Of a stretch of 64,000 nt of DNA, positions 2,515 to 44,400 are shown in pieces (the stretch's first letter is position 1; each line of letters opens with the position of its first letter). Source of the DNA: an uncultured Hormoscilla sp. (lineage in GTDB: Bacteria > Cyanobacteriota > Cyanobacteriia > Cyanobacteriales > Desertifilaceae); the NCBI GenBank assembly GCA_963921275.4, contig OZ001293.3:5888001-5952000 (forward strand), in the 5' to 3' direction. Below the pieces are notes generated by a model. The model worked only from the letters and a program-made list of their open reading frames with translations. It was not told the origin of the DNA and did no database searches. A program made the translations under genes and the position numbers.

Positions 2515-2996
2515 TAAGAACTACTTTCTCCTGAGATTTCCTACTATCACCGACCTACGTCTGCGTATCCTAGGCATTACCCCAGACATTTGCTTCTTAG
2601 GCCATGCCTCCCCACCTGGACATACGCTTCACATCTGGTTGGTCCCTAGGGACAGTACCACGGGGGTTACTTCGTTCCCAAACGTCATATCTCGATGTCT
2701 TTAGGTCTCCTCTCTAAGCTGGCAGTTGTTTGTGTACAAAACTAATGAAAGCTAAGCATCAGTCCTAACTGCTTGCACTTTTGTGCCCGGTGTATCAGCC
2801 TTATTTCACCGGTTTTTTCTTACGACCCTTACAAGGATTTGCCTGTTCTAACCATGGACATCTTTCCTAGCGGCGTTACCTCCTCAGGGCTGGAAGCTAT
2901 CCTACATTTACCCTCGCTCAGCACCATGGTGATGTTGCTCCACAGCACCGATTTTTCCGGAACGGTGGGCCAATGTCACCCCTGTACATGGGGGAA

Positions 2997-5755
2997 ATTA
3001 GGGGTCGAGCTGGGAATCGCTCCCCAACCCTCCCATTCGGAACCTAAAGAGCGACTTTCATCGCACACGGCTACTGGGTATCAGGCCCGTTGTCATAGGT
3101 AGCCTTACTGGGGATTACTCCTGTTGGCCCTTACTACTTGTGATTTAGCCCCTTTCCTGGTTAACCAGTAACTCATTCCTCGATTACATTTGTAACGGGC
3201 TTATGATCTTTTGGGTTTACTCTCACCAGTAGTATCCTGATATCACCGACCCGCGTCTGCATATCCTGAGCATTACCCCAGGCTTTAGCTTCTCGGGCCA
3301 TCTCTCCCTTCATGCCTTGCGCTTCACATCTGACTGGTCCAGTAGGACAGAACACGAAGGGTTACTTCGTTCCCTGGTATCATTTCACGATGCCTTTAGG
3401 CCCCTACTTTTCCCCGGCAGTTATTTGGGTACAATGTTAGCCAATTCCCTAACTAACACTAACTGCATTAACTTTTGTTCCAGCGCATTAAGCCTTATTT
3501 CGCTGGTTGGGTTTAACGAGGTTTACATAGGTTCGCCTGTTCTAGCCATGGACATCATCGAGCGCGTCCTCACCGGTAAGGGCTACCAGTTATCCTACAT
3601 TTGAGTTCTCGCTTAGCACCACGACGATGTTATTTCGCAGCACCTCCAACCGGTGTTACCCCCGTACCTGGGGCTATGCCTTACTCACATATTTCTTAAC
3701 AATTGTAGCAACAGTCACGATTGGCAAATATGAGTCTATTGTTTTTTCAATAAAACCTATATATTATCAATAAGCCCGCCATTGAATTGAATATCTGGTG
3801 AAGAGTCAGCTCCTTTTTTGTTTGAGCACAAGTCTTTTGAGTAATTGTACCAGTTCACCACAAGAAATTCTTCTATAAAGTTGTGAACTGGCACGGTTCA
3901 TTCAGTTCTACTTCCGGCGCTCAATTGTCAGATAAGGACCGGACTATTGACGACCGTCCGGGCGAGAGAGCGAATTTACACTTATGGAGTTAAACATACT
4001 TTTTCATATTTTGGGACAGAGGCGAATCTAGAGAATCGCTTGAGCTAGAATTCAAGTATCAGCTATGTCATGCAAGCGTCGTAACCCTTGCCAAATAGTT
4101 TTCACCCCTGGTTCACCATCCCGTTTTCGTCCTAAAAAACCACCTAATTTAGCAATCCAATGAATACAAGTCTTTATTGTTGGCGTCGCCTCTAGTGGTG
4201 TCAAAGTTTTATTTATCGTGCAGTAAAGAGCTTGCTACTCATGGGTTTCTAAAATACTATCTGCTGGGGCCTCCGGGTTGTAACGAGCTTCATAAGTAAG
4301 CCACAATAATCGCCATGCCACGATTGTATAAGTGGCTAAAGCCCTTTCAATGCGATCTGCTGTTTCTAGTTGTAGTTGTTCTTTTCGACAACCACTTTTT
4401 AGGACATAATGATAACGTTCAATTAACCAACGATAGCTATACCAACGCAGGCACCACGTCATCAAAGCCAGTAATCGTCAGCGTCGTTAACAACAACCAG
4501 CTAACCCGGTCAACTCCAGAAGGTGGATGCTCTTCTTCTGCCAGAATTACTTGTATTTTAATTGGCTTTAATGATTTGTAGTGAATATGTGTTTTGGGTG
4601 GTTGAATCTCTACCGAAGTGCTACCCAGGGTTAAGGTTGCTTCGCGAGCCTTTCTCTCGGGATTTTTTGATAATTCTATCGTCACAACTCCTACGGGAGA
4701 AACTTTGTAGATAGCTGATTCTAATTTCTCTACTTCCTCTGAATCAACTGATTTTACAGAACGGTTCTAATAAGCGCGAATTAGAAGCATGCTCTGAATT
4801 CTCAGAGCGAGGCAAGGCCAAAAAATCATAAATATCTGCCTCCCGATCCGCCACTGTCACCACTGTAACATCTGATGGTATCACTGCTTCCGTTGCCGAT
4901 AGCGAGTCCAGCCACCGCTGGCTTTCTTTATCTTTTGTTTCTATGAATCTGTCGAGAATGCTTCTTGCCAATATCAGAAATATCCCGTGCCCTGCTGATT
5001 TAACACTCAAGGGCGGTACTCCTGTCCCACTGGTACAAAAAACCGAGTGAACTTTTAGTTCTCGACTGGTTCTACAATTCCATTTGCCCCATTCCTTTTT
5101 TACTGGGATGGTGCGTAAAATTTAGTTCGGTGGTGTCCTGAATTGCTAAAATCGTTTCATGTTGTTTGACTCGGGAGAGCGTACTTTGTTGGTGGCAATC
5201 GCGAATCGCTTCCGCTTGAATCTGTGGATTTGCCCAAAAGTCATTTGTGCTTGGGTCCCTGCCCAATCTCCACAAGCTTGTGGTACCGTAGCATTGGGTT
5301 GTTCTGCTAAATCTGATACAATTTTTACCAGTATGAATGTGGCGACGGCGATCGCCCAAATCAGCAGATTTTAGTTCTTCTGCGGCCCAAGACTTCATAT
5401 TTTTCTGTCCATGGATAATTTTTGCTCTTCGTGCTCTCTACAATATTAGCAACGCCAGAAGCAAGAGTCGTTTTATTTAATCATTATTTTACTTTTTAGC
5501 ACTGGCGAGGGTTCCGACAGCGCGTAGCGCATTTCGTATCGGACTATATATTAACTTAGTGGAAGTATATTGTTAACTTTTTTGAAGCAATTGTACTCAA
5601 ATCAAGACGGTGTAAGGATTTCAGATTGTTAAGAAATATGTGAGTAAAGCATAGGTACCTGGGGAGGGGGAATTAAACCCCCATGATTACCAGAGTTCCT
5701 AGTTTCCTAGGCCAGCGTTCCGTATATGACTACGTTAGGCTGGAACTCATCGCAC
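2997..5755 (-). mobile_element. Inner ORF-less group II intron (twintron), interrupted by IS4
   Basis: 5' GTGCGATGAGTT at 5755. Domain V (AGCCGTGTGCGATGAAAGTCGC) and domain VI end ..CTCGACCCCTAAT at 2997. EBS1 at 3443-3449 matches the flank GATTCCC. Confidence 0.92.
3674..5654 (-). mobile_element. IS4-family (IS50/Tn5-like) element, transposase frameshifted
   Basis: ~30-bp TIRs CTATGC(C/T)TTACTCACATATTTCTTAACAAT; 10-bp TSD GTACCTGGGG at 3664-3673 and 5655-5664; motifs IQDTTELNF, VADREADIY, YSYRWLIERYHYVLKSGC. Confidence 0.95.
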
Positions 5756-5840
5756 GGGAATCTAACCCTCATAACGTCTGAGTTGTGGGTTGCCCCACCC
5801 GACTTTCCTGATTTCTCAGTTACGCCGGAACGAATCGCAC

Positions 5841-7207
5841 TAACTTCCATAAAATAGCCGGGCGGGAAACTCCTAAAGCCGCTGCTGCTCGACGATAGTC
5901 ATCGGGAACGCTTTGAAACCCTTCTTGGGTAGATCGAATCAAAATCGGGAGTACCATACAGGCGAGGGTTAGCCCTCCTGAAAGAATCGAAAAACCCATC
6001 CCGAGGGTTTTACAAAAGAAGGCATTGCCAAATAATCCGAAGACAATTGAAGGAGTACCGGCTAATAGATTTAGACTCTGACTTACCCACCGCCCGAACC
6101 AACTAGACTTCTCCAAAATATAAATTTTGGCTATAATAAACTTTGAAAATTTAATTTAGTGTCAATAAGTATGAGTTTAGATTTAAACTAGACAGTTTCA
6201 ATGTTTCAATTGGTAAATTAACAAATGCTTTTGAGCAGCTAGTTTATAAGCTCAATATTATTGAGCTTCAAAGCGCAAGTCCGTTGGCTGAAAGGCAATC
6301 ACAGTGCGGTATCCCCCCTTTTGTGCGAGTTCGGTATCCCCTGGGTAGTGCGACTAGCGCTCCCAGGGGATACCGAAAGCTCCCGGGGGATACCGCCAAA
6401 GTTTCAGCTTTTTTCATAGCTCTCGCAGGTTAGAAGGGAGTACATCAGGAGTGAGTCAGTTATTGCTCCAAGTTGTAACCGAGAACTAATTTTCGTGTCA
6501 ATTTTAGGCATATTAGAATCTGGGTATTGCTCTGAAAAATTTGAGCTTAATTAATTCTACTTAGGGGCGCTTTTTTAACAGGAAATCCATCAAACCCTTA
6601 TGATTTCGTACAGGTAACATATGTGAGAATGTGAGGTGGGGCTTGAAACTCATAGCTAGCAAGGGTTTCATTCTCGGAGAGGTCTACTTTCTTTCACGGT
6701 AAATTCGGCCAATAAAATTGCCGTCCCCAATCGCTACCGTCATACAAACTCCCAGAATTAATCCCGTTGATACCAGAATGGGGGCAATTCCTCCCCCGCG
6801 ACCGGCTATCGGGTGATAAATTACCAATTTACCAGACTCCATCCCTGCCAGAATATATCGCTCAACAGCCACAATAACCTACATTTTGCACTACAAAATG
6901 TAGGATGTAATGATTACAAGAGCTTGGTGATGAAAGCGAACCTAAAAGCTCATATCCGTATAAATATTTATACGTTATGTTCGACAAATTGCCAGGCGGT
7001 GTCTCCGGAGGGGACACCGATATATTACGTATTACAAAATGTCGTGCAATGGCAATCGTATCGAGTAATTACATATTACTTATCATATTACAATTTGTCG
7101 TACGGAATATGGGACAATAATATTCCACTCACTCCCAGGACCACTGCCCAAATTAAACCGGTGGCGATCGCCTCTTTTTGATTAAGCTTAAACCTTACCT
7201 CAGTCAT
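5841..7207 (-). pseudogene. pstA: Phosphate ABC transporter permease PstA, shattered
   Basis: Fragments MTEVRF..GLIWAVV, LWLLSDIFWQG, AGRGGGIAPILVST, LAEFTVKES|WFGR..LAGTPSIVFGLFG..MVLPILIRST are separated by insertions. The 3' exon is absent. Confidence 0.85.
6105..6685. mobile_element. Non-autonomous IS derivative/MITE in pstA
   Basis: Ends AGACTTCTCC / GGAGAGGTCT with a 3-bp TSD ACT. Removing it restores the frame KESWFG. Confidence 0.75.
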
Positions 7208-7383
7208 AAATATGTCCTCGATTTATCACTTCGGCGATCGCCACCAGCAGCAGCACCATTGCCATTAATATCAGACCGCTGACAAATAAAGCCCCCTGAT
7301 GATTTCCCATAGCATATGCCATTTCTAGAGCAATATTTGCCGTCAAGGTCCGCACCGGTGCAAAAATATTGTTAGGGATTTTC
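7203..7383 (-). pseudogene. pstC: Phosphate ABC transporter permease PstC, C-terminal fragment
   Basis: IPNNIFAPVRTLTANIALEMAYAMGNHQGALFVSGLILM; its stop overlaps the pstA ATG. Confidence 0.85.
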
Positions 7384-7437
7384 CGTTTGAAAAGACTTGT
7401 CTAGTTTGCGATCGGCGCAAAGTTTTTGAATGAAAAC

Positions 7438-7551
7438 GGCGTTGCACTTCGGACGGGATGATAGACATAGTTGCAAATAGTTTTAAACCTAGACTACAAG
7501 CGACTTTCAGTTATGTGCAAAAAGAGTATCATCCCCAAAATGTGCAACGCC
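7438..7551. mobile_element. MITE
   Basis: TIR GGCGTTGCAC..GGGATGA / TCATCCC..GTGCAACGCC. Confidence 0.6.
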
Positions 7552-7980
7552 TGGAAAACGTCTGATGGAGCTGACGACCATGAGATCCTTGCAGTTTAAG
7601 GATTTCTCCTTTTTGAGTATGATTTTGAGTATTTTGAATATGACGAAGACCTGAGAAATTATACTTATCTTGCCGCCGCGCAGATCTAGGCGATACGCCG
7701 AGCATAGAGGGAGCTAAGTACATACGCGCAGTTGCAGTACGTCACTTTTCAGTATCTAGAGTATATAAAGGGTCATAACCAGCGATCACTATCGTCACCT
7801 CGCAGCTGCTCGCCTCAGCACTGGCTTCACCTCATGCCCGATCGCCTTCGCCACCATGTTGCACTCTTCAGGTGTACAGAGTTGCTGTGTCCCTTGACAG
7901 GCATGAGACGATAGTATCTCATGACGTACAGCTGGTTGCTGTGTCTGGGGAACGGTACTTTTTTCTTCTGTGGGTAGCTA

Positions 7981-8877
7981 GGGCGTGTCATCAGTTAAGC
8001 CAAACAACAGTAGCAGCCAGGTAGATAGCACCCAAGAAATTCTGAGCCCTCTTATCGTAACGGGTGGCAATGGCTCGATATTGCTTGAGTTTGGCAAAAA
8101 AATTCTCAATCAAATGACGTGCTTTGTATAGATATTTGTCATAACGGCGTTGTTCTTTTCGATTGGATTTAGGCGGAATCACAGGTTCGCATTGCTGGGC
8201 TTCAAGACGTTTCAAAACCCGTTCGTCAGCATCAGAAGCTTTGTCTGCGAGTAACGCATCAGCCTTAATATTATCAAGTAACACATCAGCCCCTTCCAAA
8301 TCGTGAGCTTGACCGGCTGTTAAATGAAAACCCGTTGGGTTCCCCAATGCGTCACAGGTCGCGTGAATTTTGGTACTCAAACCCCCTTTACGGCGTCCGA
8401 TGGCTTGGTCGCAATCTTTTTTTTTTGAGCACCTGCACTATGTTGATGAGCCCTTTATATCGTGGCATCAATCATCGCATATTCGTTATCGGCATCGGAC
8501 GCAAGTACCTTGAATACTCTTTCCCATACCCCGGATTTTGACCACCTACTATGGCGCGTATGAATTACCCTCAAGTCCCCAAATCGCTCGGGTAAGTCCC
8601 GCCAAGGTATCCCAGCTCTATATCGATACAAGACAGCATAGACAAATAAGCGGTTATCCTTAGCTGTCCCCCCCACATAACCCTCCCGACCTGGCAATAG
8701 GTCCCTGATTCTCTCTCACTGGTCATCTCTTAAAGCATAGCGACGCATTTCTCAAATTCTCCTGCTCTAACCTTTACCCTCTTAGATCACACCAATATAT
8801 CCTGGTTGTCAACTCAATCATCTGGTTATATATTTTTGGTGGGGACCCATATCGTTAATCTAACTGATGACACGCCC
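7981..8877 (-). mobile_element. IS5-family element (two-ORF transposase, premature stops in orfA)
   Basis: TIR GGGCGTGTCATCAGTTA in CTAG context; PWRDLPERFG, ARHLIENFFAKLKQYRAIATRYDK; A-run slippery site near 8420. Confidence 0.92.
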
Positions 8878-8998
8878 TAGCTAGGTTTACCAACGATGTA
8901 AAGTTCTGACTTGCTACGGGTTAATGCTACGTACAGCAAGTTGTCTTCCTGCTCTTCCTGCCAAGGCTTGATGTTTCGCCAAGACATAGGCATGTCCC

Positions 8999-9126
8999 CA
9001 GGGCAAACGCATCTTATTTTTGAAACGCTTACAGGACAAGGGTTTGAGCATCTAGAGTATTTATACTTATATAATTCCAGAATGCTTACTGGGAAAGGCT
9101 TCCAGGATTTAGATGCGTTTTCCCTG
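8999..9126. mobile_element. 128-bp MITE (ISAs1-like ends)
   Basis: TIR CAGGG(C/A)AAACGCATCT; 10-bp TSD GGCATGTCCC at 8989-8998 and 9127-9136. Confidence 0.85.
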
Positions 9127-9863: not shown

Positions 9864-10766
9864 GGTCGGGGTCGAGCTGTCCCTCACGGGACAACCCTCC
9901 CATTCGGAACCTGAAGAGCGACTTTCACCGCACACGGCTACTGGTTGATAAGCTGTTGTCATAAGCAGGATTACTCTGGGTTACCCCCTTTGTCCCTCGT
10001 CCCATGAAATTTTGCCCCTTATGGTCAGTCGATGAACCGTTAACTACCTAACTCCGGAAGGTTTGCGGGGGTGAACCAGTAAACCATTAAGTTTGCTCTT
10101 TACTTACATCTCCCCTGTATTTGGGGCCCTGAGTTTTTACCCGGTTAGGATTTAATCCACCATTAATCCCTAGGATTTCTCCTGGTTTATTACATTCAAA
10201 AGCTACTTTTTCCCAGAACATCTTACCATATCCGTCCGACGTCAGCTTATCCACAGGTATTACCCTGGGCTTTTGCTTCTTAGGACATCCCTCCCCTCGT
10301 GGCTTGCGTTTTACATCTAACTGGTCCAAATGAGGACAGCCCACAAGAGGTTACTTCGTTCCCTGGTATCATTTCACGATGCTTTTAGGTTCCTACTATC
10401 CTCCGGGAGTTCTTCGAGCACGATGCTAGCCAGATGATACAACTAGCACTAACTACCATTTCCCTTTTGGGCCAGCGTATTAGCCTTATTCCGCTGGTTT
10501 AAAGTAACGAAGTTTACACAGGTTCGCTTGTTCTAACCATGAGCATCTAACAAGCGCGGTGTCACCGGCTTAGGCTGCCAGCTATCCTACATTTAAGTCC
10601 TTGCTTCGCACCACAGCGATGTGACTCTATAGCACTAAGGACCGGTAGTACCCTCGACCCCCGTAGCTGAGGAGAGGGAATTTAACCCCCATGATAACCA
10701 GAGTTTCTGGCAAATGAAACCAGACAGACTTTCACCGTTACCGATTTACGCCTGAACGAATCGCAC
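9864..10766 (-). mobile_element. Complete ORF-less group II intron (903 nt) in the helicase gene
   Basis: GTGCGATTCGTT start at 10766; DV/DVI end CTCGACCCCGACC. Removal gives the in-frame TTLKMV-AQALEADG..IVFGKANA. EBS1 is at 10432-10438. Confidence 0.93.
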
Positions 10767-11937: not shown

Positions 11938-12180
11938 GGAGTAGCTCAGTCATTCCGTGGAGTAACTCAGTCATTCCTTGGAATGCTGAGTTACTCCGTG
12001 GAGGGAGTGAGTTATTAAGGTGGAGGGAGTCCCTATTAAGGTGGAGGGAGTCCCTATTAAGGTGGAGGGAGTCCCTATTAAGGTGGAGGGAGTCCCTTAT
12101 TCCGTGGAGGAAGTTACTCCGAAGGTAGAGAGAGGCACTCCAAACGGAGGAAATGAGTTATTCCGTGGAGGGAGTCATTT
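11938..12180. repeat. Degenerate 21-bp tandem array of palindromic units
   Basis: GGAGTAACTCAGTCATTCCNN units grade into about 4 copies of TAAGGTGGAGGGAGTCCCTAT. Confidence 0.85.
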
Positions 12181-21570: not shown

Positions 21571-21837
21571 ATGAAATAGCCCTGGGGTCTCATAGTCCAA
21601 AGAACTGTTAGTTAGCAGTTGGTCCCCTACTATGGTGAAGGCGTTGTTGCCGGAGACTAACTGGTAAGTAAAGGGATCTCCCAGGTTGGGGTCGGCCCAA
21701 GCCTGCCAGAAAGTCCCCACGAATACGACAATGCTGCTGTTACTGAGCTCTAGGTCGGTAGGAGAGGAGTGCTCTGAAAATCGCTCACGTAAATCTTTGA
21801 AATCCCCTGCAGGGTAGCCAGGGTTTCCCCTTCAAAA

Positions 21838-24293
21838 TTAATCATAGACGATCGTCAAATCTTCGAAACTCAAACCTCCTGCTAGCTCGATCTTGTCCGT
21901 ACCCTCTTGAAAGCCTATGATAATATCCCGGCCCATGTCCGGCTCCAGAACAAAAATATTGGCCTCTGATCCTTCGTAGAGGCGATCGTTTCCATTTCCG
22001 CCGATGAGAAAGTCGTTCCCATTTCCGCCGTAGAGGCGATCGTTTCCATTTCCGCCGATGAGAAAGTCGTTCCCATTTCCTCCGTAGAGGCGATCGTTTC
22101 CATCTCCACCAATAAAACAGTCGTCCCCCTCCTCTCCGTAGAGGCGATCGTTTCCATCTCCGCCGATGAGAAAGTCGTTCTCATTTTCTCCGTAGAGGCG
22201 ATCGTTTCCGCCGATGAGAGTCTCGTCCCCTTCTTTCCCCTGTAGCCAGTCATTCTGACCATCCTGACAGACAATCTTCAAGACATCCGAAACATCGTTG
22301 ACGTTAATAGTAAAGACCTCCGAGTAACTGGCCCCAGCAGCGTCGATAGTTTGGACGCAGATGCTGTAACTCGACTTGGTCTCAAAGTCTAAAGAACTGT
22401 TAATTAGCAGTTGGTCCCCTGCTATGGTGAAGGCGTCGTTATCATCGTCACCAACGCCTGAGACTAACTGGTAGGTAAAGGTATCTCCAACGTCGGGGTC
22501 GCTAGTTCCGAAAGTCCCCACTACAGTATTGACTGGGGAGTTCTCATTGATGCTGCTGTTGCTAAGAAACAGGTCGGTAGGAGAGGAGTTCAATGCTTCA
22601 TCCTTGACGTTAATAGTAAAGACCTCCGAGTAACTGGCCCCAGCAGCGTCGATAGTTTGGACGCGGATGCTGTAACTCGATTTGGTCTCAAAGTCCAAAG
22701 AACTGTTAATTAGCAGTCGGTTCTCTTCTATGGTGAAGGCGTCGTTATCGTCGCCACCAATGCCGGAAACTAACTGGTAGGTAAAGCTATCTCCTGAGTC
22801 GGGGTCGGTAGTGGAGAAAGTCCCCACGCGGCTACCCAATGCGGAGTTTTCATTAATACTGCTGTTGCTGAGTTCGAGGTCGGTAGGAGAGGAGTTCTCT
22901 ACAACATCGTTCACTTGAATCGTGAAGGCCTCCGAGTAACTGGCCCCAGCAGCGTCGGTAGTCTGGACGCGGATGCTGTAACTCGATTTGGTCTCAAAGT
23001 CCAAAGAACTGTTAATTAGCAGTCGGTTCTCTTCTATGGTGAAGGCGTCGTTATCATCGGCACCAACGCCGGAGACTAACTGGTAGGTAAAGCTATCTCC
23101 TGAGTCGGGGTCGGTAGTGGAGAAAGTCCCCACGCGGCTACCCAATGCGGAGTTTTCATTAATACTGCTGTTGCTGAGTTCGAGGTCGGTAGGAGAGGAG
23201 TTCTCTACAACATCGTTCACTTGAATCGTGAAGGCCTCCGAGTAACTGGCCCCAGCAGCGTCGGTAGTCTGGACGCGGATGCTGTAACTCGATTTGGTTT
23301 CAAAGTCCAAAGAACTGTTAATTAGCAGTCGGTTCTCTTCTATGGTAAAGGCGTCGTTATCGTCGCCACCAACACCGGAGACTAACTGGTAGGTAAAGCT
23401 ATCTCCTGAGTCGGGGTCGGTAGTGGAGAAAGTCCCCACGACTGCACCCTCAGCGGAGTTTTCATTAATACTGCTGTTGCTGAGTTCGAGGTCGGTAGGA
23501 GACTCGGCAACATCGTTGACGTTAATAGTCAAGGTCTCCGAGTAACTGTTATTAGTAGAGTCGGTAGTCTGGACGCGGATGCTGTAACTCGATTTGGTCT
23601 CAAAGTCCAAGGAACTGTTAGTTAGCAGTGAGTTCCCTTCTATGGTGAAGGCGTCGTTATCATTGACACCAGCGCCTGAGACTAACTGGTAGGTAAAGGA
23701 ATCTCCACTGTCGGGGTCGGTAGTGGAGAAAGTCCCCACGACTGCACCCTCAGCGGAGTTTTCATTAATACTGCTGTTGCTGAGTTCGAGGTCGGTAGGA
23801 GACTCGGCAACATCGTTGACGTTAATAGTCAAGGTCTCCGAGTAACTGTTCCTAGCAGAGTCGGTAGTCTGGACGCGGATGCTGTAACTCGATTTGGTCT
23901 CAAAGTCCGGGGAAATTTTAATTAGCAGTTGGTCCCCTACTATGGTGAAGGCGGCGTTATCATAGTCAAGAGCATCGTCACCAAGGATGGAGACTAACTG
24001 GTAGGTAAAGGTATCTCCAACGTCGGGGTCGGTAGTGGAGAAAGTTCCCACGACAGTATTGACTGGGGAGTTTTCATCGATGCTGCTGTTGCTGAGTTCG
24101 AGGTCGGTAGGAGGGGAGTTCTCTACAACAATGTCAAAGGTATCTCCCCTTCGATTTCCCGCTTGGTCGATGGCGGTTACCGTTACGGTAAAGATGCCTC
24201 CGGTAGCAGGGATACCGCTGATAACTCCCTGAGAGTTGATGGTTAAGCCCTCTGGTAAACCGGTAGCTGTGTAGTTATTGATGTTGTCAGCTA
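21838..24293 (-). pseudogene. Cadherin-repeat/RTX Ca-binding adhesin-like protein, 5'-truncated
   Basis: A putative-Ig fragment ([12 protein letters not shown]), six ~100-aa cadherin-like repeats ([17 protein letters not shown]) and GGxGNDxLY nonapeptides. No start codon at the 5' junction. Confidence 0.85.
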
Positions 24294-25842: not shown

Positions 25843-27021
25843 ATGACCTTAAAACATATAAAGATTATCGGGCATCGTGGAGCCAGTGGCTACCTGCCCG
25901 AAAATACCCTAGCTGCTTTTTCTTTAGCGATCGAGATGGGTGCTAACGCGATCGAACTCGACATTGTCCCCACAAAAGAGAGGGAATTAATAGCCCGTCA
26001 CGAAAACGACATCACCCACACTACCAATATATCACATCTGACTGAATTTAGCGATCGCCTGACCGTCAAAAGCATCAACGGCCAAGAAATAACAGGCTGG
26101 TTTACAGAAGATTTCACTTTAGCAGAAATCAAAACCCTCACAGCGAAAGCACCTCCCGATCGCCAACTTGGGTACAATTTAAAGCCTGCGCAGGCAGGCT
26201 TTGTAACTGTAGCCCCACCCTTTAGGGTTGGGGCTCCCGATCGCCAACTTGGGTACAATTTAAAGCCTGCGCAGGCAGGCTTTGTAACTGTAGCCCCACC
26301 CTTTAGGGTTGGGGCTCCCGATCGCCAACTTGGGTACAATTTAAAGCCTGCGCAGGCAGGCTTTGTAACTGTAGCCCCACCCTTTAGGGTTGGGGCGGCG
26401 GCGGTGGGGGCGGAGGTGGGGGCGGTAGTGCCGACATTACAGGAAGTTATCGATCTAGTCAAGCATCAAAGGACAGCTGCCGGGCGGGCGATCGGGCTTT
26501 ACATAGAAATCAAGCATTCTACCTATTTTAGAACAATGGGGCTGCCAATCGAAGAGCCTTTAGTAGAAATATTGGAAAAGAATGGATACAGGACAGCGGA
26601 TGCCCCGATTTTTCGCGCAGCGATCGCGATCGAATCCTTTGAAAGCGAGAGCCTCAAACACCTGCATCAACTTACCCAAGTACCTCTCGTGCAGCTGCGC
26701 CAGGACTTGACATCAGCATCAGAATTAGCTAATATAGCCGAGTATGCTGTAGGATTAGCAGCCTACAAACGTTTAATTGTCCCCACTGACGAACGGGGAC
26801 ATCTGTTAGCGCCTACCTCATTAATTCAGGATGCCCATCAAGTTAATCTAAAGGTGTATAGCTGGACATTTAGAAATGAAAAAATCTATCTCGCCCCCGA
26901 GTACAAAGGTAACCCACAAGCAGAATACGAGCAATTCCTGCTCTTAGGATTAGATGGAGTGTTTAGCGACTTCCCAGATACCGCAGTCTCAGTGCGCGAT
27001 CGGTTCCATCCTTCGCAGTAA
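25843..27021 (+). CDS. Glycerophosphodiester phosphodiesterase with an in-frame repeat insertion
   Basis: IIGHRGASGYLPENTL, IELDIVPTK, ARHE, YIEIKH, GVFSDFPD. Confidence 0.9.
   Translation: MTLKHIKIIGHRGASGYLPENTLAAFSLAIEMGANAIELDIVPTKERELIARHENDITHTTNISHLTEFSDRLTVKSINGQEITGWFTEDFTLAEIKTLTAKAPPDRQLGYNLKPAQAGFVTVAPPFRVGAPDRQLGYNLKPAQAGFVTVAPPFRVGAPDRQLGYNLKPAQAGFVTVAPPFRVGAAAVGAEVGAVVPTLQEVIDLVKHQRTAAGRAIGLYIEIKHSTYFRTMGLPIEEPLVEILEKNGYRTADAPIFRAAIAIESFESESLKHLHQLTQVPLVQLRQDLTSASELANIAEYAVGLAAYKRLIVPTDERGHLLAPTSLIQDAHQVNLKVYSWTFRNEKIYLAPEYKGNPQAEYEQFLLLGLDGVFSDFPDTAVSVRDRFHPSQ
26153..26395. repeat. 81-bp tandem repeat x3 containing a REP-like palindrome
   Basis: Three identical units. The AGCCTGCGCAGGCAGGCTTTG..TGTAGCC core is also intergenic near 41398 and 59062. 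Confidence 0.95.
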
Positions 27022-31213: not shown

Positions 31214-31598
31214 AGGACCAGTCAGATGTGAAGCGCAAGCTACGAGCGGGAAAGATGGCCCAAGAAGCTAAAGCCTAGGGTAATGCCTAGGATACGCCGA
31301 CGTGGGTCGGTGATAGTAGGAAGTCTTGGGTAAAAGTAGCTCTAAACGCTATAAGCCCATCGCCAGAGGTGATGAGGAATGGGCGGTGTCTTCCGCATGC
31401 TCTTGTCCTGAAGGACAAGAGCATGCGGAAGACGCCGGGTGAAAAGGAGCCAAATTACATGAGACAAGGGACAAGGGGAGTAATCCCGAAGTTACCTGCC
31501 CATGACAAGGGCCTATTACCCAGTAGCCTCCTGCGGTAAAGAGAGTCCGGTTCCGCTCTTGGAGGGTCGGGAGGCGACAATGCGGCTCGGGCCCGACT
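31214..31598 (+). mobile_element. Group II intron remnant (DII-DVI, 5'-truncated, degenerate DV)
   Basis: Colinear with the 3' half of 43359-44229 (GATGGCCCAAGAAGC, ACGTGGGTCGGTGATA, TACCCAGTAGCC, GGAGGGTCGGGA). Confidence 0.8.
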
Positions 31599-32710: not shown

Positions 32711-34048
32711 ATGAATAGAGAATATGGTAATTTTGCTGATAAAATAGGTGCTTTCGCTGCTCCAGGCGGTAAAGTTCATATTGAAAACCAAACTATTATT
32801 GTTTCCGAGCAGGATGGGAGGAGCGAAGGACGGAGAGACTGGCAATCAATCAATGCTGGAATGCTCAATACGGTAATCACTGGCAATTATCTGTACAAAC
32901 CAGTGCAGAAGCAGCAGTGTGAGAAGGAAGATTTCTTGAGGGAAAGAATAGCCCAAGAAAAAACCAAGGGAAAGGAAATTGCTTTGATTGGGGAAATGGG
33001 TGTGGGTAAAACTATGCTGGTCCAGGAGATTACAGAATGTGAGTTGGAGCAAAAGTTAGGCTTGGAGGTCGAAAATTTGATAGCAGAAAGAGTAGAAAAT
33101 ATGGGCAAAAAATATCAGGTGAATATCGCCGAGTTAGTGCAACAGTATGATCGATGGGAATTAACTAGCAGGGAAGCAGCAGAAAGATTAGGGAAAATTG
33201 ACACGGTATCGACGATCGCGGGATTAGTGCAACTGCTCCAGAAGACGAGAAATGAAGAAACCCGCAGAAAAGTAGCAGAAATATTAGGGGAAATAGGGAA
33301 GGGGGATTCAGAGGCGATCGCGGGATTAATGCAACTGCTCCAGGATACTAGAAATGAAAACACGCGCCAGGAAGTAGCACGAAGCTTGGGGAACATTGGC
33401 AATGGTGACTCAGAGGCGATCGCGGGATTAGTGCAACTGCTCCAGAAGACGAGAAATGAAGAAACCCGCAGAAAAGTAGCAGAAATATTAGGGGAAATAG
33501 GGAAGGGGGATTCAGAGGCGATCGCGGGATTAGTGCAACTGCTCCAGGATACGAGAAATGAAAACACGCGCCAGGAAGTAGCACGAAGCTTGGGGAACAT
33601 TGGCAATGGTGACTCAGAGGCGATCGCGGGATTAGTGCAACTGCTCCAGAAGACGAGAAATGAAGAAACCCGCAGAAAAGTAGCAGAAATATTAGGAAAA
33701 ATAGGGAAGGGGGATTCAGAGGCGATCGCGGGATTAGTGCAACTGCTCCAGGATACGAGAAATGAAAACACGCGCCAGGAAGTAGCACGAAGCTTAGGGA
33801 ACATTAGCAATGGTGACTCAGAGGCGATCGCGGGATTAGTGCAACTGCTCCAGGATACGATTAATAAAGAAACTCACAGTCAAGTAGCAGAAATCTTAGG
33901 AAAAATTGGCAATAGTTCCTTAGAAACTATCGCAGCTTTACTGGAACTGTTACAGTCATCTCAAGAAGAAGTAAACAACTGGAAATTAGGAGCAAGTTTG
34001 GGATTTTTTGGCATCGGATCTCGGTCTGCGATCTCGGCTTTAGAATAA
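32711..34048 (+). CDS. HEAT/PBS-lyase repeat protein with a truncated NACHT-like P-loop
   Basis: IALIGEMGVGKT, then alternating 35-aa repeats (IGxGDSEAIAGLVQLLQ; 210-bp period). Confidence 0.8.
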   Translation: MNREYGNFADKIGAFAAPGGKVHIENQTIIVSEQDGRSEGRRDWQSINAGMLNTVITGNYLYKPVQKQQCEKEDFLRERIAQEKTKGKEIALIGEMGVGKTMLVQEITECELEQKLGLEVENLIAERVENMGKKYQVNIAELVQQYDRWELTSREAAERLGKIDTVSTIAGLVQLLQKTRNEETRRKVAEILGEIGKGDSEAIAGLMQLLQDTRNENTRQEVARSLGNIGNGDSEAIAGLVQLLQKTRNEETRRKVAEILGEIGKGDSEAIAGLVQLLQDTRNENTRQEVARSLGNIGNGDSEAIAGLVQLLQKTRNEETRRKVAEILGKIGKGDSEAIAGLVQLLQDTRNENTRQEVARSLGNISNGDSEAIAGLVQLLQDTINKETHSQVAEILGKIGNSSLETIAALLELLQSSQEEVNNWKLGASLGFFGIGSRSAISALE

Positions 34049-35815: not shown

Positions 35816-35825
35816 GAAGAGAGAT

Positions 35826-36823: not shown

Positions 36824-36987
36824 TATCAAGTCCGGATGATTAACCATAATAAAACAATATCTTCGTAGGTTAGGTAGAGCGGCTACGCGCCAGCGAAACC
36901 CAACAGGGCTTACCAAAGTTGGGTTTCGTGCCTCTACCCAACCTACGGGCGATAAAATTTTTATTATGATTTAATCGGACATGATAT
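36823..36987. mobile_element. MITE enclosing an inverted REP doublet
   Basis: ATATCAAGTCCG..CGGACATGATAT ends; inner GTAGGTT(A/G)GGTAGAG../..CTCTACCCAACCTAC. Related REPs occur near 18370 and 35551. Confidence 0.65.
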
Positions 36988-37120
36988 AATAAAGCTTAAT
37001 AAACAATGTTTTTAGTCGGTTTTCAACCGACTTTAGCCTCGTTCCCTGGCTCCCGCCTGGGAACGCGGGGGTTTGAACCCCCTGCGGGCTATCGGGTTGA
37101 CTAATATCGCAAATCAGAAG

Positions 37121-38081: not shown

Positions 38082-39229
38082 TATCTCGCTCCCGCACTTA
38101 TTGATGGTAAAATATTCTTCTCTATTTCCCCGATCTCCTTCATTATCCCATTTTCCGAATTATAGAGCAAAGAATACTTTACTTCCTGCAAGTAATCAGC
38201 AATATTGTCATGTAAAATTGGTCGATCTACTTTAACTGTGTTATGATAGTCCCAGACATCCCAAATGATAATGCCAATGCCGACGATCGGGTCTAAAAGT
38301 TGCGATCCGATTTTGCCTGCCAGAGTAGCGCCTGTTTTGCTCGCAATTTTAGCCCCCGCCTTACCAGAGAGTTTCGCCACCACCTTACTGCCGATTTTAG
38401 CAGCGATCGGGATAACCAAAGGCTTCAGAGCCAAATAACCGCCTCCAGCAGCCAAGAGTTTGAGGGAAAGATTAGAGACATTTCCTTGGGTATCATTAAT
38501 AGCGATCGCAATCTCACTCAGATATCGGTCCCAGTCAGCCTGGGGAATTTTGTAACTACCTTGAATTTGCTGAATATGATCGCTCAAAGCATCCAGGTAA
38601 TGCTTAACAGTTGCTTGGGTTAAGCGTTCCAGCCTCAGTTGAGCAATAGTTGGTCTAAGTACCCGTCTGGCAAATTCTTGCTGGAAATCAGAGGTAATTA
38701 CTTCCGCCACCTTTTCCTCGGGAGTAGGATTATCGGGGTTCAGCAAACGAACTGCACCAGCAGATAATTGCACGAAAAAGCTCTTAAATTCCAATTGCTT
38801 CTGGTTGAAATAGCCGAAATACCAATCTAAAAATCGATCGTCCACCCGGTCGATTAATTCCTCAACCCAGAGATCCAGTTCTCCAGAGGCATAATTTTCG
38901 GCACTGGCACGGGCCTCACTCAGGGCCTCTACCATTGCCCGATCGACTTGACTCCAGTCAGGCTTTTCCACAACAACAACTTCAGTCTTTTCTGGCACAT
39001 CTGTTGCCGTAGAGAATGCTTGGGAAATAAAGAATTGACCCAGCAGGGGAATGAGAACTACCAAAATCACGATCGCCCAGACGATCGGGGTAACAGACTT
39101 AATTAGTTGCACCCAAGAGCGGATCCGGTCCGTTTTCTGGGCATAACTACCTTCTTTTTCTGCCGTCAACTTTTGCTCTTCATTCTTAGAGTCTGTTTTT
39201 TCTATTATTTGCTGTTGTTCTTCATTCAC
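38081..39229 (-). CDS. Conserved hypothetical membrane protein (start probably GTG 39229)
   Basis: TM helix; DWSQVD..VDDRFLDWYFGY; Ala/Gly/Lys-rich helix; LDPIVGIGIIIWDVWDY. Confidence 0.75.
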   Translation of the reverse strand: MNEEQQQIIEKTDSKNEEQKLTAEKEGSYAQKTDRIRSWVQLIKSVTPIVWAIVILVVLIPLLGQFFISQAFSTATDVPEKTEVVVVEKPDWSQVDRAMVEALSEARASAENYASGELDLWVEELIDRVDDRFLDWYFGYFNQKQLEFKSFFVQLSAGAVRLLNPDNPTPEEKVAEVITSDFQQEFARRVLRPTIAQLRLERLTQATVKHYLDALSDHIQQIQGSYKIPQADWDRYLSEIAIAINDTQGNVSNLSLKLLAAGGGYLALKPLVIPIAAKIGSKVVAKLSGKAGAKIASKTGATLAGKIGSQLLDPIVGIGIIIWDVWDYHNTVKVDRPILHDNIADYLQEVKYSLLYNSENGIMKEIGEIEKNILPSISAGAR

Positions 39230-39281
39230 AGTAATATTTCCCCAGACGATCTGCGTAAGGTGGGCAATGCCCACCCTACTT

Positions 39282-41357
39282 TCAATTCTTCATTTTCATA
39301 TCCATCACCCGCATCAGAAAAGCAAACTGATCGGCAATTTCCTTGATCATCTTAGCAGTAGGCTTGCCACCACCATGTCCCGCCTTAGTTTCAATTCTGA
39401 TTAACACGGGATTTTCACCCTCGTGGGCCTCCTGCAAAGCCGCAGCAAACTTAAAACTATGAGCAGGAACCACCCGATCGTCATGATCTGCCGTAGTAAT
39501 CAGAGTTGCTGGGTAAGCCGTGCCAGGTTTAAGATTATGCAAGGGCGAATAAGCATAGAGGGCCTTAAACTCCTCGGGGTCATCAGGAGAACCGTAATCA
39601 GAACACCAAGCCCAGCCAATGGTAAACTTATGGAAGCGCAGCATATCCAGCACCCCCACAGCTGGTAGCACCGCCGCAAACAGATCGGGGCGTTGGGTCA
39701 TGCAAGCACCTACCAATAAACCCCCATTACTGCCGCCAGCAATTGCTAGCTTTGCAGAACTCGTATACTTGCGATCGATCAGCCACTCAGCCGCCGCGAT
39801 AAAATCATCAAATACATTCTGCTTCTGTAGCTTCGTCCCCGCCTGGTGCCATTCCTCACCGTACTCGCCACCGCCACGCAAATTCGGAACCGCATAGACA
39901 CCACCCATCTCCATCCACACCAGATTAGAGATGGAGAAATTGGGCGTCAGCGAGATATTAAAGCCACCATAGCCATAGAGGTAAGTAGGATTATTCCCAT
40001 CTAACTGCAACCCTTTTTTGTGGGTAATAAACATCGGGACTTTGGTCCCATCCTTGCTGCTATAGAAAATCTGCTGCGTCTCGTAATCATCTGGGTTAAA
40101 ATCCACCTGGGGTTGCCGATAGATGGTACTTTCGTCCGTTACCAGATCGTAGCGGTAAATAGTTCCCGGTGTGGTGAAACCGGTAAACATGTAAAAGGTT
40201 TCCCGGTCATGACGCTTACCATCAAATCCCCCAACAGAACCAATTCCCGGCAATTTTACCTCTCGCACAAAAGTCCCGTCCAGGTCAAAAATCTTGACAA
40301 GCGATCGGGCATCTTTCAGGTAATTCACCACAAACTGATTATGCAATATTCCCACATCTTCCAGCACTTCCGATGCTTGGGGGATAACTTCTTGCCAATT
40401 TGCGCGATCGGGCCGTTCTACATCAATAGCAATTATCCGACTCCGGGGCGCATCCAAATCAGTCATTAACCAGAACCGAGAGCCCTCATTATCGATCAAA
40501 CTATAGCTAGCCTCGAACTCGCCAATCAGTTCTACTACCGGTGCTTCTGGTTTGCTTAAATCCCGATAGAAAAGCAAATTTCTGGGATACGTTCCTCGCC
40601 CGACGCTAATAATTAAATAACGTCCATCCTCAGTTACATTACCACTAAACATCCATTCCTTGTGGTCAGGACGTTCGTAAATCAGCACGTCCTCTGATTG
40701 GGGTTGATCCAGCTGATGATAATAAAGCTTCTGGTAATAATTGACATCTTCCAACTTAGTCGCATCATTTGGTTCGTCGTAGCGACTGTAGAAAAAACCC
40801 TTACCATCCTTAGTCCAAGCTGCGCCAGAAAATTTCACCCATTTAATCAAATCTGGTAAATCCTCACCCGTTTCCACATCCTGCACGTGCCATTCTTGCC
40901 AATCAGAACCCGAAGTAGACAGGCCATAAGCTATTAACTTCCCATCTTCAGTAATTGCTGTCCCCGATAGGGCGATCGTACCATCATCCGAGAGAGTATT
41001 CGGGTCCAGCAGCACCCGGGGTTCGCCCTCCAAGTCCGTTAAAGTGTAAAGGACAGATTGATTTTGCAGACCTGTATTGCGGGAATAAAAATAGCGATCG
41101 CCCCGCTGGAAAGGAATCCCATATTTTTCAAAATCCCACAGCTTTCTCAGCCGCTGCTGAAGTCCAGATCGGGCTTTAATTGCACCCAGATAACCAAAAG
41201 TCACCCGATTTTGAGCCTCAACCCAAGCCTTAGTTTCTTCCGAGTCTGGGTCTTCTAGCCATCTATAAGGGTCTGGCACCCGAACACCGTGGTAATCATC
41301 AATTTGGTCAACTTTGCGGCTGACTGGATAGACGATATGTTGCCTTGCATCTGACAT
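39282..41357 (-). CDS. Prolyl oligopeptidase (S9A)
   Basis: DPYRWLED, GGSNGG nucleophile, DDRV, AGHG. Confidence 0.97.
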   Translation of the reverse strand: MSDARQHIVYPVSRKVDQIDDYHGVRVPDPYRWLEDPDSEETKAWVEAQNRVTFGYLGAIKARSGLQQRLRKLWDFEKYGIPFQRGDRYFYSRNTGLQNQSVLYTLTDLEGEPRVLLDPNTLSDDGTIALSGTAITEDGKLIAYGLSTSGSDWQEWHVQDVETGEDLPDLIKWVKFSGAAWTKDGKGFFYSRYDEPNDATKLEDVNYYQKLYYHQLDQPQSEDVLIYERPDHKEWMFSGNVTEDGRYLIISVGRGTYPRNLLFYRDLSKPEAPVVELIGEFEASYSLIDNEGSRFWLMTDLDAPRSRIIAIDVERPDRANWQEVIPQASEVLEDVGILHNQFVVNYLKDARSLVKIFDLDGTFVREVKLPGIGSVGGFDGKRHDRETFYMFTGFTTPGTIYRYDLVTDESTIYRQPQVDFNPDDYETQQIFYSSKDGTKVPMFITHKKGLQLDGNNPTYLYGYGGFNISLTPNFSISNLVWMEMGGVYAVPNLRGGGEYGEEWHQAGTKLQKQNVFDDFIAAAEWLIDRKYTSSAKLAIAGGSNGGLLVGACMTQRPDLFAAVLPAVGVLDMLRFHKFTIGWAWCSDYGSPDDPEEFKALYAYSPLHNLKPGTAYPATLITTADHDDRVVPAHSFKFAAALQEAHEGENPVLIRIETKAGHGGGKPTAKMIKEIADQFAFLMRVMDMKMKN

Positions 41358-41467
41358 AGTATGGTATTCCTAATCGAGTTTGAAGTTTACGGACTTAAGC
41401 CCGCGCAGGCGGGCTTTGTTTCTGTAGCCCTACCCTTTAGGGGTGGGGGTTAGGGGGAGGGTAACTA

Positions 41468-44400
41468 TCAACTCGTAGCAGCGATCAGGACTTCGCCTTT
41501 AAGCATCCGTTGAGCAGCCTCCAGCAAAGCTTCTTCCAAATAAGGCTTAGTGAAATAGCCCTTGGCACCCGAGTTAGCCGCCCTTTGCCGGTGCTTATCG
41601 GCACCACGAGAAGTCAGCATCGCCATAGGCATATGATTGAGGTGCTCGTCTTTCTGAAGCCGATCGAGAAGTTCCAGACCATCCATTCTGGGCATTTCGA
41701 TGTCACAGAAGATAATATCGCAAGGCAGACCCGATCGCAATTTATCCCAAGCATCCTGACCGTCACGAGCTTGTTCCACCCGGTAACCAGCCTTATTAAA
41801 GGTCATCGACAGCAGTTCCCGCACCGTAATCGAGTCATCGACAATCAGCACAGTCGGCTCAGTTTTGATCTGCGGTACCTCAGGAATAGTTTGCATAGCA
41901 TCGTAATCCCAGGTTCTTTCCCGCCGGGACCGTCCCTTCGAGAGGTCAATCAGTTCCAGCACATCCGCGATCGGCATAATCCGACTATCCCCCAAAACCG
42001 TAGCGCCCGCCACCCCCATGGGCTTAGGTACCGGGCCTTCCAGTTGCTTAATCACAATTTCCTGCTCGCCCAGTACCCGATCGACCTGGAGAGCAATGTA
42101 TTCACCAGCACCGCGCAGGACCATTTCCAGCACGTCAAATTCTTCCTCCGTATAGTGTTGATTATTACTAGGTGCCGTTTCCTTTAACTGAGCACCAGGC
42201 CGATTGCCAGTGCGCGAATTCAGTAGGGCCGCTTCCAGGAGCGATCGCTCATATAGGTCCTGCATCCGCCCGCCCACATCATTCAGTTGTTGCACCTGAT
42301 AGAGCAAATTATCCAAAGTTGTCCGTAGCCGATATTGGTTTTGCTCCAATCTATTGCGGTTCACCACCAATTCCCCGACCAAGTTACTGAGGTTGTCCAG
42401 CTGCTTGATCGGCACCTTCATGTTCTGCTCAGGCTGTCGCGGTCGGCTATGGGTTTGCTGTTGCCGCTGTTTGCTGTGTGGTTTGATCGGAGGTCCACCC
42501 AACTTGTCTGCATCTACCAACATTGCTTCGAGTTCATCAAACTCATCACTGTTTGATGAACCATTACCTGCTTCTGATTGAGTCTCTTCGTTTCCGGTGG
42601 ACTCTGCTTGCAGACCATCTTGCGAGGCATCCAAAAATTCTTCTAGTCGAGCGAATACTGCTTGCTCGGCGTCCCCTAGGCTTGCCTGCTCTTCATGCCC
42701 CAGTAAAGCCTCCAATTCTTCCCATTGGTTATTTTTCGCTGCTGCTGTGTCCCCGGGGAGCGCTATTCGCACAAAAACGGGGACACAGGCTGTCGATGTC
42801 TGTTCCCCTGTCGAACCCTCATCAGGATCCCGATCGCCCAAGAGTTCCATATCTTTTTCCCAATCTATCGGACCCAAGTCAAGGTCATCGGACAGATCCT
42901 CTGTTTGAGAAAAATCGGTAGCATCCAGTTCATCAAGGATCGCTTCAATATCATCTGTACTTTGCCCAGATGCAAACATATTGGAATCCATGTCTAGCAT
43001 ATCTAGCGGCGTCTGGCTAGAACTTGATGCCACATCGGGATCCAACGATGCCGATATATCCCACATCGGATCTAATTTTTCATCTTCTGATGTCTTGACC
43101 TCTTTTGTCCCTTCGGATGACAAGTCCAACAATTCCTTGTCTGACATATCCGGCCAAGAGTCAGTTGCCGTTTGGACTTCTGCCAAACCTTCTGCCAAAG
43201 AAAGTTCCTCTACCTCTCCTGATGGCTGACCGTACTCTGAAAATATATCCAACTCTTCTGGCATCTGATTTTTCGCGCAGCGTGCTTCACCTGCCCCTGC
43301 CTTGCTTACTTCCGATGACAAGTCCAACAGTTCATTTGACATATCTTCAAGAGAGTCTGTGCGATTCGTTCTAGCCTAACGTGGTCAAACACGGAACGCT
43401 AGCCCGGTTTCATTAGCCGGGAACTCTGACCGCATGGGGGTTAAATTCCCCTCCCCCCAGGTACGGGGGTGACACCGGTCCTCGGTGCTACGAAGCGACA
43501 TCATCGTGGTGCTAAGCGAGGACTCAAATGTAGGATAACTGGCAGCCTAAGCCGGTGACGCCGCTAGGAAAGATATCCAAGGTTAGAGCAGGCAAACATG
43601 TGCAAGCCTCGTTATAAGGAACCAGCGAAATAAGGCTATATGCGCTGGCCTAAAAAGGAAATGGTAGCTAGTATTAGTTTTAGACTCTGGCTAATATAGT
43701 ACTCAAATAGCTCCCGGGGTATAGTGTGGACCTAAAGGTATCGCGAAATGTTGTTAGGGAACGAAGTAACCTCTCGTGTGCTGTCCATCAGGACAAGTTA
43801 GATGTTAAGCGCAAGCCACGGGGGGAGGGATGGCCCAAGAAGCGAATGCCCGGGGTAATTCCTGGGATAACATCTACAGTAATGTAGATGATGCTGGGTA
43901 GCCAGCGCTGACGTGGGTCGGTGATACTAGGAAGCTGCTGGAATGAGTAATCCTAAAAAGCCACGGAACTAATCCGAAACGCAAGTGGAGGATAAGGTAT
44001 GGATAACTGGTAAAACTGACTTGAAAATGGTGATACTAACGGTTATCAGAACAACCACTCGCTAAACCAGGAAAGGGAAGAAAAGACAGGCGGCAAGGGC
44101 TAACGGAAGTAATTCCTATTAAGTCTACCTATGAAAAGGGCCTAGTACCCAGTAGCCGGATGCGGTGAAAATCGCAAGTCCGGTTCCTCAAGGGAGGGTC
44201 GGGAAGCGATTCCCGGCTCGACCCCATCCAATGAAATAGACTCTCCCTCGTCCAGAGATTCCGCATACTCCATCTCCAGCTCCAACTCTTGCAGCATCTT
44301 CCGATTTTTCGCGCAGCGATCGCGTAGGACCGGTACCCTGTCGGTGCGCGCAGCGCAATCGCCTGCCGCTTCCGAGTCAGATGCTTCTTTTGTTTCTGTC

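Follow-up and report, generated by a model that had tools for sequence, protein, structure and literature searches.

Mobilization of group II introns that lack an open reading frame (ORF) has been demonstrated to occur in trans in Thermosynechococcus elongatus (Mohr et al. 2010, PMC2882425). In that organism, the TeI3 introns (ORF-less) and the TeI4 introns (RT-bearing) are of subgroup IIB1, and the ORF-less introns form families that are defined by exon-binding sites (EBS) 1, 2 and 3, occupy well-paired sites and nest in other introns. TeI3c, with its helper reverse transcriptase (RT), also prefers an A near position -15 (PMC2882425). The DNA analyzed here is a window of 64,000 nucleotides (nt) from an uncultured Hormoscilla sp., positions 5888001-5952000 of contig C1 (OZ001293.3) in a 7.03-Mb assembly of 47% GC and 7 contigs that is 96.7% complete. 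The window, meaning this whole stretch, contains several copies of an ORF-less group IIB intron, and feature coordinates refer to it throughout. These copies belong to a genome-wide swarm of IIB2-like introns that carry family-specific guides, end 8 nt after the predicted branch point and are likely mobilized by RTs supplied in trans by the resident RT-bearing introns.

Whether the family matches a described class was a question left by a sequence-only reading of the window. The overall strategy is that of T. elongatus, while the 8-nt spacer and the scale differ. In T. elongatus there are 28 introns in 6 families (PMC2882425), in contrast to 326 complete ORF-less copies in 43 families in the present genome, a more than tenfold difference. 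The T. elongatus passengers are described as ORF-deletion derivatives that are 85-100% identical to their helpers; here, no ORF remnant and no close RT parent were found in the assembly, the domain V-VI end is different, and the introns are IIB2-like rather than IIB1. The spreading mechanism is therefore already known from Thermosynechococcus, and what is new is the scale, the 8-nt spacer and, possibly, a non-cognate helper. Reviews consider ORF-less group II introns to be rare in bacteria; the present genome holds at least 326 complete copies.

The cyanobacterial IIB2/CL2 introns (PMC8643678, PMC4649490) share with the present lineage the 5' GUGCGAUUC sequence, a stem-less EBS2, EBS2a and EBS3, and possibly the extra stem-loops at the base of domain I. 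Three of the 21 IIB2 introns in Table S3 of PMC8643678 were checked and have spacers of 6, 7 and 7 nt, with two ending in UC and one in AC, in contrast to the 8-nt spacer and missing ORF of the lineage described here. The IIB2 spacer has been given as 7 nt (Costa 2022, PMC9294222); since N.sp.I4 (NC_003273.1) has a 6-nt spacer and a UC end by its published coordinates, IIB2 spacers are not always 7 nt. RmInt1 of Sinorhizobium meliloti (PMC4238363) is likewise reported to have a CC end, a last base held by gamma and a +1 exon base held by EBS3. However, RmInt1 is RT-bearing and of a different class (D/IIB3), and its CC end is called an exception, whereas CC or CU is the rule here (303 of 326 copies). 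The Bacillus introns B.a.I2 and B.c.I4 (PMC9294222) are also described with a 3' splice site that is set by gamma and EBS3 and with a flexible spacer. These are single introns with an alternative +4 site or an extra domain of 53-56 nt, unlike the fixed, one-base-longer spacer found across an entire mobile lineage. Another filamentous cyanobacterium in which CL-type introns have expanded on a large scale is Arthrospira platensis (Miura et al. 2022, PMC8919778), with 101 introns reported as the highest number among representative genomes; Pfreundt and Hess (PMC4649490) mention no fewer than 150. The corresponding count here is 404 parsed ends of the ORF-less lineage, to which the RT lineage adds 77 ends with its exact motif.

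A genome-wide swarm of ORF-less introns

Profiles built from the intron copies of the window matched 442 ends and 402 full domain-I sequences across the genome. Pairing of 449 starts with 404 parsed ends yielded 350 elements, and the 326 with a length of 700-1100 nt were kept as complete copies; 24 of the 350 elements fell outside this range and 38 of the 442 end matches were unparsed. The complete copies form 43 clusters, considered here as families, at 283 distinct sites and with 41 EBS1 sequences. The catalytic YADD motif of an RT ORF was absent from all 334 paired elements shorter than 1500 nt. A non-autonomous family with many guide types, as had been proposed from the window alone, is supported by these counts. 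The complete copies make up 4.1% of the genome, rising to at least 6.5% once RT introns and fragments are added.

Family A is the largest with 144 complete copies, followed by family B with 73. Family A occupies 119 distinct sites, mostly with 5 or 6 of 6 EBS1 pairs. Among the 127 family-A copies of 871 nt, 63 are identical to the majority sequence and the spread is thus recent. A GUGYG 5' start is present in 72 of 72 family-B copies and was seen in examples of family A. As in T. elongatus, copies are nested in other introns (45 of 326), and 33 of the 326 lie inside RT-bearing introns, about half of them antisense. A small palindromic repeat of the GCGCAGCG type is inserted in intron loops, including the linker between domains V and VI of some copies; it is also scattered between genes and occurs in the window near 1490 and 31050.

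The predicted folds contain the AGC triad of domain V and the bulged A of domain VI that are features of group II introns. Exon recognition relies on the ordinary IIB set of EBS1, EBS2, EBS2a and EBS3, with delta pairing inside the intron. The IIB2/CL2 features of PMC4649490 and PMC8643678 are present in the form of the 5' GUGCGAUUC, the stem-less EBS2 and EBS2a. As a possible counterpart of the extra IIB2 stem-loops 5' of the basal internal loop of domain I, RNAfold predicts two stem-loops in nt 1-70 of family A. A CL2-type RT in domain IV is absent from the ORF-less lineage; the resident RTs, which belong to another lineage, group with published IIB2 RTs. Since the spacer is 8 nt instead of 7, the introns are filed as an ORF-less, IIB2-like variant of group IIB and not as a plain IIB2 member. 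Many copies (the GCTCTTCAGG or GCTCTTTAGG families), two of them located in the window, have changes in the 3' arm of domain V, and some of these types are multi-copy.

The 3' end and the 8-nt spacer

Copy A (43359-44229, forward strand) is a complete 871-nt ORF-less group IIB intron of family A that begins with GUGCG and ends with CGACCCC-AUCC. The sequence-only reading had placed the intron end 4 nt past CGACCCC, and this position is borne out by copy conservation, host frames, empty-site paralogs and gamma covariation. Of 160 near-identical BLAST matches to copy A, 139 are full length and all but one of these end in ATCC. The full-length matches are fixed through CGACCCCATCC (138 of 139 at the sole variable base) and conservation is lost at the next base. 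Family B has the same conservation boundary with a GACT end in approximately 70 of 72 copies. Excision of 43359-44229 restores a cheA-like frame of 1280 amino acids (aa) on the opposite strand, in contrast to 650-668 aa for three other ends that were tried, the AY end (A followed by a pyrimidine) giving 668 aa. When the CGACCCC+4 end is applied across the genome, the host frame is open at 56 of 295 sites compared to 4-7 sites at offsets of -2, -1, +1 and +2. Empty-site paralogs were found for 87 of the 326 copies with this end and for 0-11 with other offsets.

The last intron base and the gamma base of J2/3 (GGA at 43828-43830 in copy A, with gamma at G43828) form a Watson-Crick pair in 40 of 43 families and a G-U pair in the remaining three, extending a covariation first seen among the copies in the window. 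The last two bases are CC in 206 copies, CT in 97, AT in 21 and other combinations in 2; an AY end is lacking in 305 of the 326. Non-AY ends are uncommon but already known from RmInt1 and two IIB2 members. Given these published exceptions, the AY end is a consensus and not absolute. With the end at CGACCCC+4, the intron terminates 8 nt after the predicted branch A. In copy A, the predicted branch A is at 44221 and is followed by the spacer CCCCAUCC that runs to the 3' end at 44229. All 43 families have this A, an invariance that is partly imposed by the parsing of the ends. An unusual branch-to-3'-end register, suspected from the outset, is supported by this spacer, since the norm is given as 6 or 7 nt (PMC9294222, PMC4748821). 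A literature search identified no report of this lineage or of an 8-nt spacer; a CL2 intron with such a spacer may already have been catalogued.

The position of the end has a practical consequence. Rfam made a single group II domain V-VI call in the window (RF00029, 44.4 bits against a cut-off of 40, 44151-44227), which falls on copy A only. AY calls of the Rfam style place the end of copy A 2 nt early, and the host gene then looks frameshifted.

Guides and target pairing

The guide map was obtained from an unbiased column scan of exon/intron covariation over the 43 families and 283 sites. Exon positions -1 to -6 covary with a 6-nt EBS1, positions -9 to -13 with a 5-nt EBS2, position -14 with EBS2a, which is the base two positions 5' of EBS2, and position +1 with one base in the coordination-loop region, EBS3. 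In copy A, on the forward strand, EBS1 is AGACUC at 43682-43687, EBS2 is UAAGG at 43615-43619, EBS2a is at 43613 and EBS3 is at 43722. An initial EBS2 candidate, AAGGUU near 43580, was dropped since the covariation puts EBS2 at 43615-43619.

Pairing of EBS1 with the flank scored 0.83 compared to 0.44 ± 0.03 (maximum 0.53) in 1000 shuffles of families and flanks in which G-U pairs were allowed. Under the same shuffles, EBS2 scored 0.76 against 0.43 and EBS2a scored 0.83 against 0.43. The observed scores were unmatched in 1000 shuffles; as the families are related, these are not strict probabilities. Two clusters, c3 and c6, contain two EBS1 types each and depress the pairing scores. The pairing of EBS1 with the flank that had been noticed in the window is thus far above chance genome-wide, and the four guide/flank pairs from which it was drawn are all present, with intron starts at 5840(-) for copy Y, 5755(-) for copy X, 10766(-) for copy c38 and 43359(+) for copy A. 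Several details were revised. EBS1 had been read as 7 nt, yet a seventh position pairs at the null level (0.53 against 0.52). An EBS2 could not be identified from the window; covariation demonstrates both an EBS2 and an EBS2a. The guides were described as specific to each copy and are instead specific to each family, as one EBS1 loop is common to 144 of 144 family-A copies and 41 EBS1 sequences are spread over 43 families. Relaxed site specificity, a further proposal, holds for a family as a whole, with family A at 119 sites, but the sites are still determined by the guides.

EBS3 and exon +1 form a Watson-Crick pair in 17 of 17 multi-site families and in 38 of 43 families overall. The base 5' of EBS1, which had been thought to pair with exon +1, is delta (43681 in copy A, forward strand). 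Delta is a U in 42 of 43 families and a candidate delta' column is an invariant A. In the 19 families where delta differs from EBS3, exon +1 is paired by delta at 5 of 38 sites and by EBS3 at 29 of 38, which corrects the assignment and rules out a subgroup IIA reading in which delta would pair with the first base of the 3' exon. As with TeI3c, there is a preference for A at exon -15, which was observed at 85 of 119 family-A sites and 41 of 61 family-B sites.

Guides diverge quickly between related families: across 20 pairs of close types (88-96% identical), the guide columns differ in 62% of comparisons versus 9% elsewhere. Mosaic blocks are found between close families, some of which may stem from recombination between inserted copies or from the method used to pair starts with ends; 20 of the 326 copies were unparsed in the antisense/mosaic comparison. 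Taken together, the sites provide 283 naturally occurring guide/target pairs from which the targeting rules of IIB2 introns could be studied.

Reverse transcriptases and candidate helpers

A single mobilizing RT had been proposed from the window; the genome contains 93 matches to RVT_1, every one of which falls outside C1:5888001-5952000, in agreement with the sequence-only reading that the window has no RT ORF. There are 60 open frames of at least 250 aa with a catalytic RT motif, and 14 of these reach 590 aa; a full-length resident RT lies, for example, at C1:5883217-5884992. The resident RT introns form a second lineage with a CUUAGUUYAAY end and a 7-nt spacer. The one protein tested has RVT_N, RVT_1, GIIM and HNH domains, and the best plasmid matches of the resident RTs include published IIB2 introns and RTs. 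Wherever an end was found, the RT ORFs end at CUUAGUUYAAY, except for 3 truncated ORFs that run into inserted copies. Insertions, of ORF-less copies or of other elements, truncate many of the resident RT ORFs, and with 33 of 326 copies inside RT-bearing introns, the passengers damage their own likely helpers.

No close RT parent was found by RT searches of the 96.7% complete assembly, and no sense-strand RT remnant was found in the ORF-less copies. Two elements of 2500 nt and 6 RT ORFs located before an 8-nt-type end had the appearance of a parent and proved to be neighboring or nested ORF-less copies. The tblastn matches of RT to the ORF-less RNAs were explained by antisense read-through of an interrupted RT ORF. 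RT-bearing relatives with the same end, CGACCCC-UAAC, do occur in Coleofasciculus, Phormidium and Floridaenema. In a tree of 24 rows, from which the A. marina RT was left out, the RTs of introns with the 8-nt end form their own clade with a support of 100/100. These RTs are 54-58% identical to the long resident RTs (about 56%). The assembly contains 136 RT-like segments, 133 of which have their better score with the resident RTs; the other 3 are distant from both groups, being only 37-42% identical to the 8-nt clade. At the RNA level, the ORF-less introns share only stretches of 35-56 nt with a resident RT intron.

Hormoscilla records likewise contain ORF-less copies with the 8-nt end, and one genome of the same genus (G148) has 66 pattern matches. 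None of 400 other genomes drawn from the phylum matched the strict end pattern, a DNA search of 200 genomes gave a good match in only one, which is of the same genus, and a search of plasmids using the 3' end returned no more than short domain V matches. There are two possibilities: mobilization by a non-cognate RT, or a parent that this assembly lacks.

Host genes and splicing

Excision restores a sense frame at 36 of 295 sites and an antisense frame at 23. A family search of the assembly identified a single enolase gene and a single glucose-6-phosphate dehydrogenase (G6PD, zwf) gene, both of them split by a sense, well-paired copy: C1:1800238-1801136 in the enolase gene, with a UAAU end, and C1:6446752-6447684 in zwf, with a GACC end. 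Other split genes encode RF3, a class-II glutamine amidotransferase (glutamate synthase-like) and an MscS-like channel. The enolase and G6PD splits suggest that splicing with an 8-nt spacer, including from a CC end, may be accurate. In the contigs of 4 sequencing runs, no joint skipping copy A was found; contigs drop rare forms and are hence uninformative on empty alleles.

Proposed mechanism and alternative explanations

In the mechanism that we consider probable, the ORF-less introns would spread by reverse splicing into DNA sites picked by the family-specific EBS1, EBS2, EBS2a and EBS3, using RTs supplied in trans by the other, RT-bearing intron lineage of the genome. The EBS2a pairing has been described as RT-stabilized and as persisting in ORF-less introns that are mobilized in trans (PMC8643678). 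The 3' end lies 8 nt past the predicted branch A, on the base that covaries with gamma and not at a fixed AY. The extra spacer base is one more C behind the branch A, such that the GGG in domain VI's basal stem could pair with either C1-3, leaving a 1-nt bulge, or C2-4, leaving a 2-nt bulge. RNAfold produced both bulge registers, in different families. A switch between 1-nt and 2-nt bulge forms is reported to take place from one splicing step to the next, and to be absent from IIB2 introns (PMC6868427, PMC9294222). The extra C would then supply the strand shift that ordinary IIB2 introns reportedly lack. The source of new guide types may be point changes, selected for the use of free sites, together with recombination between copies. 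We infer lariat formation at the branch A, splicing in vivo and the identity of the helpers, whereas the boundaries, the guide/flank covariation, the family structure, the recent spread and the lack of a close RT parent in the assembly are seen in the sequence data.

More tentatively, and at somewhat less than an even chance, the 8-nt lineage with its sliding GGG/CCCC branch helix may live as a parasite on a non-cognate RT that is about 56% identical to the RTs of the lineage's own clade, outnumbering its helpers roughly fourfold and splicing accurately from core genes such as enolase. If true, this would be a bacterial case of a common splicing and mobility protein serving hundreds of introns of an unrelated lineage with more than 40 guide sets. 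Irrespective of this reading, the genome allows a direct test of the capacity of IIB2-like introns to acquire the domain VI strand shift, and of the extent to which an RT can serve the RNAs of foreign introns, a matter relevant to how a common splicing apparatus arose.

Several observations weigh against mobilization by the resident RTs and against the splicing model. Many copies lie in genes in the antisense direction (23 of 295 sites, compared to 36 in sense), where splicing cannot help, and the branch point and splicing are predicted from the sequence. The EBS2 of copy c38 is poorly paired (1 of 5). Identity between the resident RTs and the RTs of introns with the 8-nt end is only 54-58%, and the resident intron RNAs share only short stretches with the ORF-less lineage, making helper compatibility an assumption. 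Furthermore, in an assembly that is 96.7% complete and in 7 contigs, a cognate RT may be missing. It is conceivable, albeit unlikely, that the swarm was or is driven by a cognate RT intron of the 8-nt clade that was lost or resides on an unassembled replicon, with the resident RT introns uninvolved. RT-bearing introns with the same domain V-VI end do exist in other cyanobacteria and match the ORF-less RNAs over longer 3'-end stretches than the resident RT introns do, and the T. elongatus helpers and passengers (PMC2882425) are far closer to one another, at 85-100% identity. Against this, 133 of 136 RT-like segments are closer to the resident RTs and the other three resemble the 8-nt clade only distantly. 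The spread of family A is so recent that a parent should still be near, and in domain I the ORF-less RNAs are very different from the RT-bearing 8-nt introns as well. A less probable explanation accepts the 3' end and dispenses with branching at the A at -9, such that the introns would use hydrolysis or circles and the 8-nt spacer would be tolerated drift. The weak 3-pair basal stem may branch poorly, published spacers are fixed at 6 or 7 nt, and the CC end of RmInt1 has been linked to poor second-step fidelity and circles (PMC4238363). The A is nevertheless invariant in all families, in part as an effect of parsing, and in the RT-bearing relatives, and insertions are precise at both ends over hundreds of sites. 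Precise insertion at both ends fits full reverse splicing of a lariat.

It is very improbable that a dedicated reprogramming step rewrites the guides of each copy to suit its new site. The excess of differences in guide columns between close types (62% versus 9%) and the many single-copy families would be expected from such a step, but the 144 family-A copies retain one EBS1 over 119 sites even though most of those sites mismatch somewhere, which largely refutes it. In addition, a few non-guide columns are equally variable (0.5-0.65) and the mosaic blocks point to ordinary recombination. Spread of the copies as DNA by a transposase or recombination, with the intron features as relics, is barely credible. 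The genome is rich in insertion sequence (IS) remnants and the mosaic copies show recombination; however, empty sites rejoin at the exact intron ends without duplication, and the flanks covary base by base with the RNA guide positions, which contradicts spread as DNA.

Other intron copies and repeats in the window

With both strands read, six related intron pieces are found in the window: A, c38, X, Y, an edge copy and a 3' remnant. Copy A is antisense inside a cheA-like gene (41468-46181, reverse strand) that encodes a CheA-like N-terminus, H-kinase_dim, CheW and a receiver, and the gene has likely been inactivated by the insertion. It is part of a chemotaxis-type cluster (41468-49567, reverse strand) in which a methyl-accepting protein (46808-49567) adjoins the cheA-like gene. 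Of three copies that were initially considered complete, A and c38 are complete and X is split. Copy c38 (9864-10766, reverse strand) is a 903-nt ORF-less intron of a single-copy type with a GACC end. Its EBS1, AUCAUC, is paired at 6 of 6 positions and its host is a same-strand frame of 148 aa without a Pfam match. Both c38 and X have the altered 3' arm of domain V.

Copy X (2997-5755, reverse strand; EBS1 GGGAAU, EBS3 A, UAAU end) is nested in copy Y and is split by a decayed 1.98-kb IS-like element (3674-5654, reverse strand), which has a 10-bp target duplication and whose 30-bp terminal inverted repeats match at 29 of 30 positions. A Pfam search of the 5072-5398 piece of this element, which we take to be IS4-like in appearance, gave no match. 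The outer intron, copy Y (EBS1 UAGCUU), spans 2520-5840 on the reverse strand in two parts (5840-5756 and 2996 to approximately 2520). It lacks domains V-VI and is broken off near transposase remnants at 1029-1950 (reverse strand; DDE_3 at 1528-1950, ISL3 at 1029-1355). The edge copy (1-241, reverse strand) is the 5' part of a complete 793-nt ORF-less copy with a GACU end that extends past the window. The remaining piece (31215-31588, forward strand) is a 3' half of the same lineage with a degenerate domain VI and a G at the branch A position.

Elsewhere in the genome, a separate high-copy repeat is present as approximately 146 copies of a motif starting with GTTCGATTCGTTTTCTCGG. Contig C3 (31420 bp) has a GC content of 17.6% compared to 42-49% in the other contigs and is possibly foreign or an artefact. 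Within the window, 57147-62415 contains two arrays of 126-bp repeats (42-aa units, possibly TPR-like) in broken ORFs, which are partly duplicated together with upstream 21-bp repeats. At 21586-24130 (reverse strand), a long ORF contains coding repeats of 300-312 bp (about 102 aa), which may be cadherin-like, and 27-bp repeats. Short tandem arrays are located at 26153-26396 (three identical units of 81 bp), 33213-34022 (six of 102 bp), 59222-59376 (four of 31 bp) and 11992-12138 (five of 21 bp).

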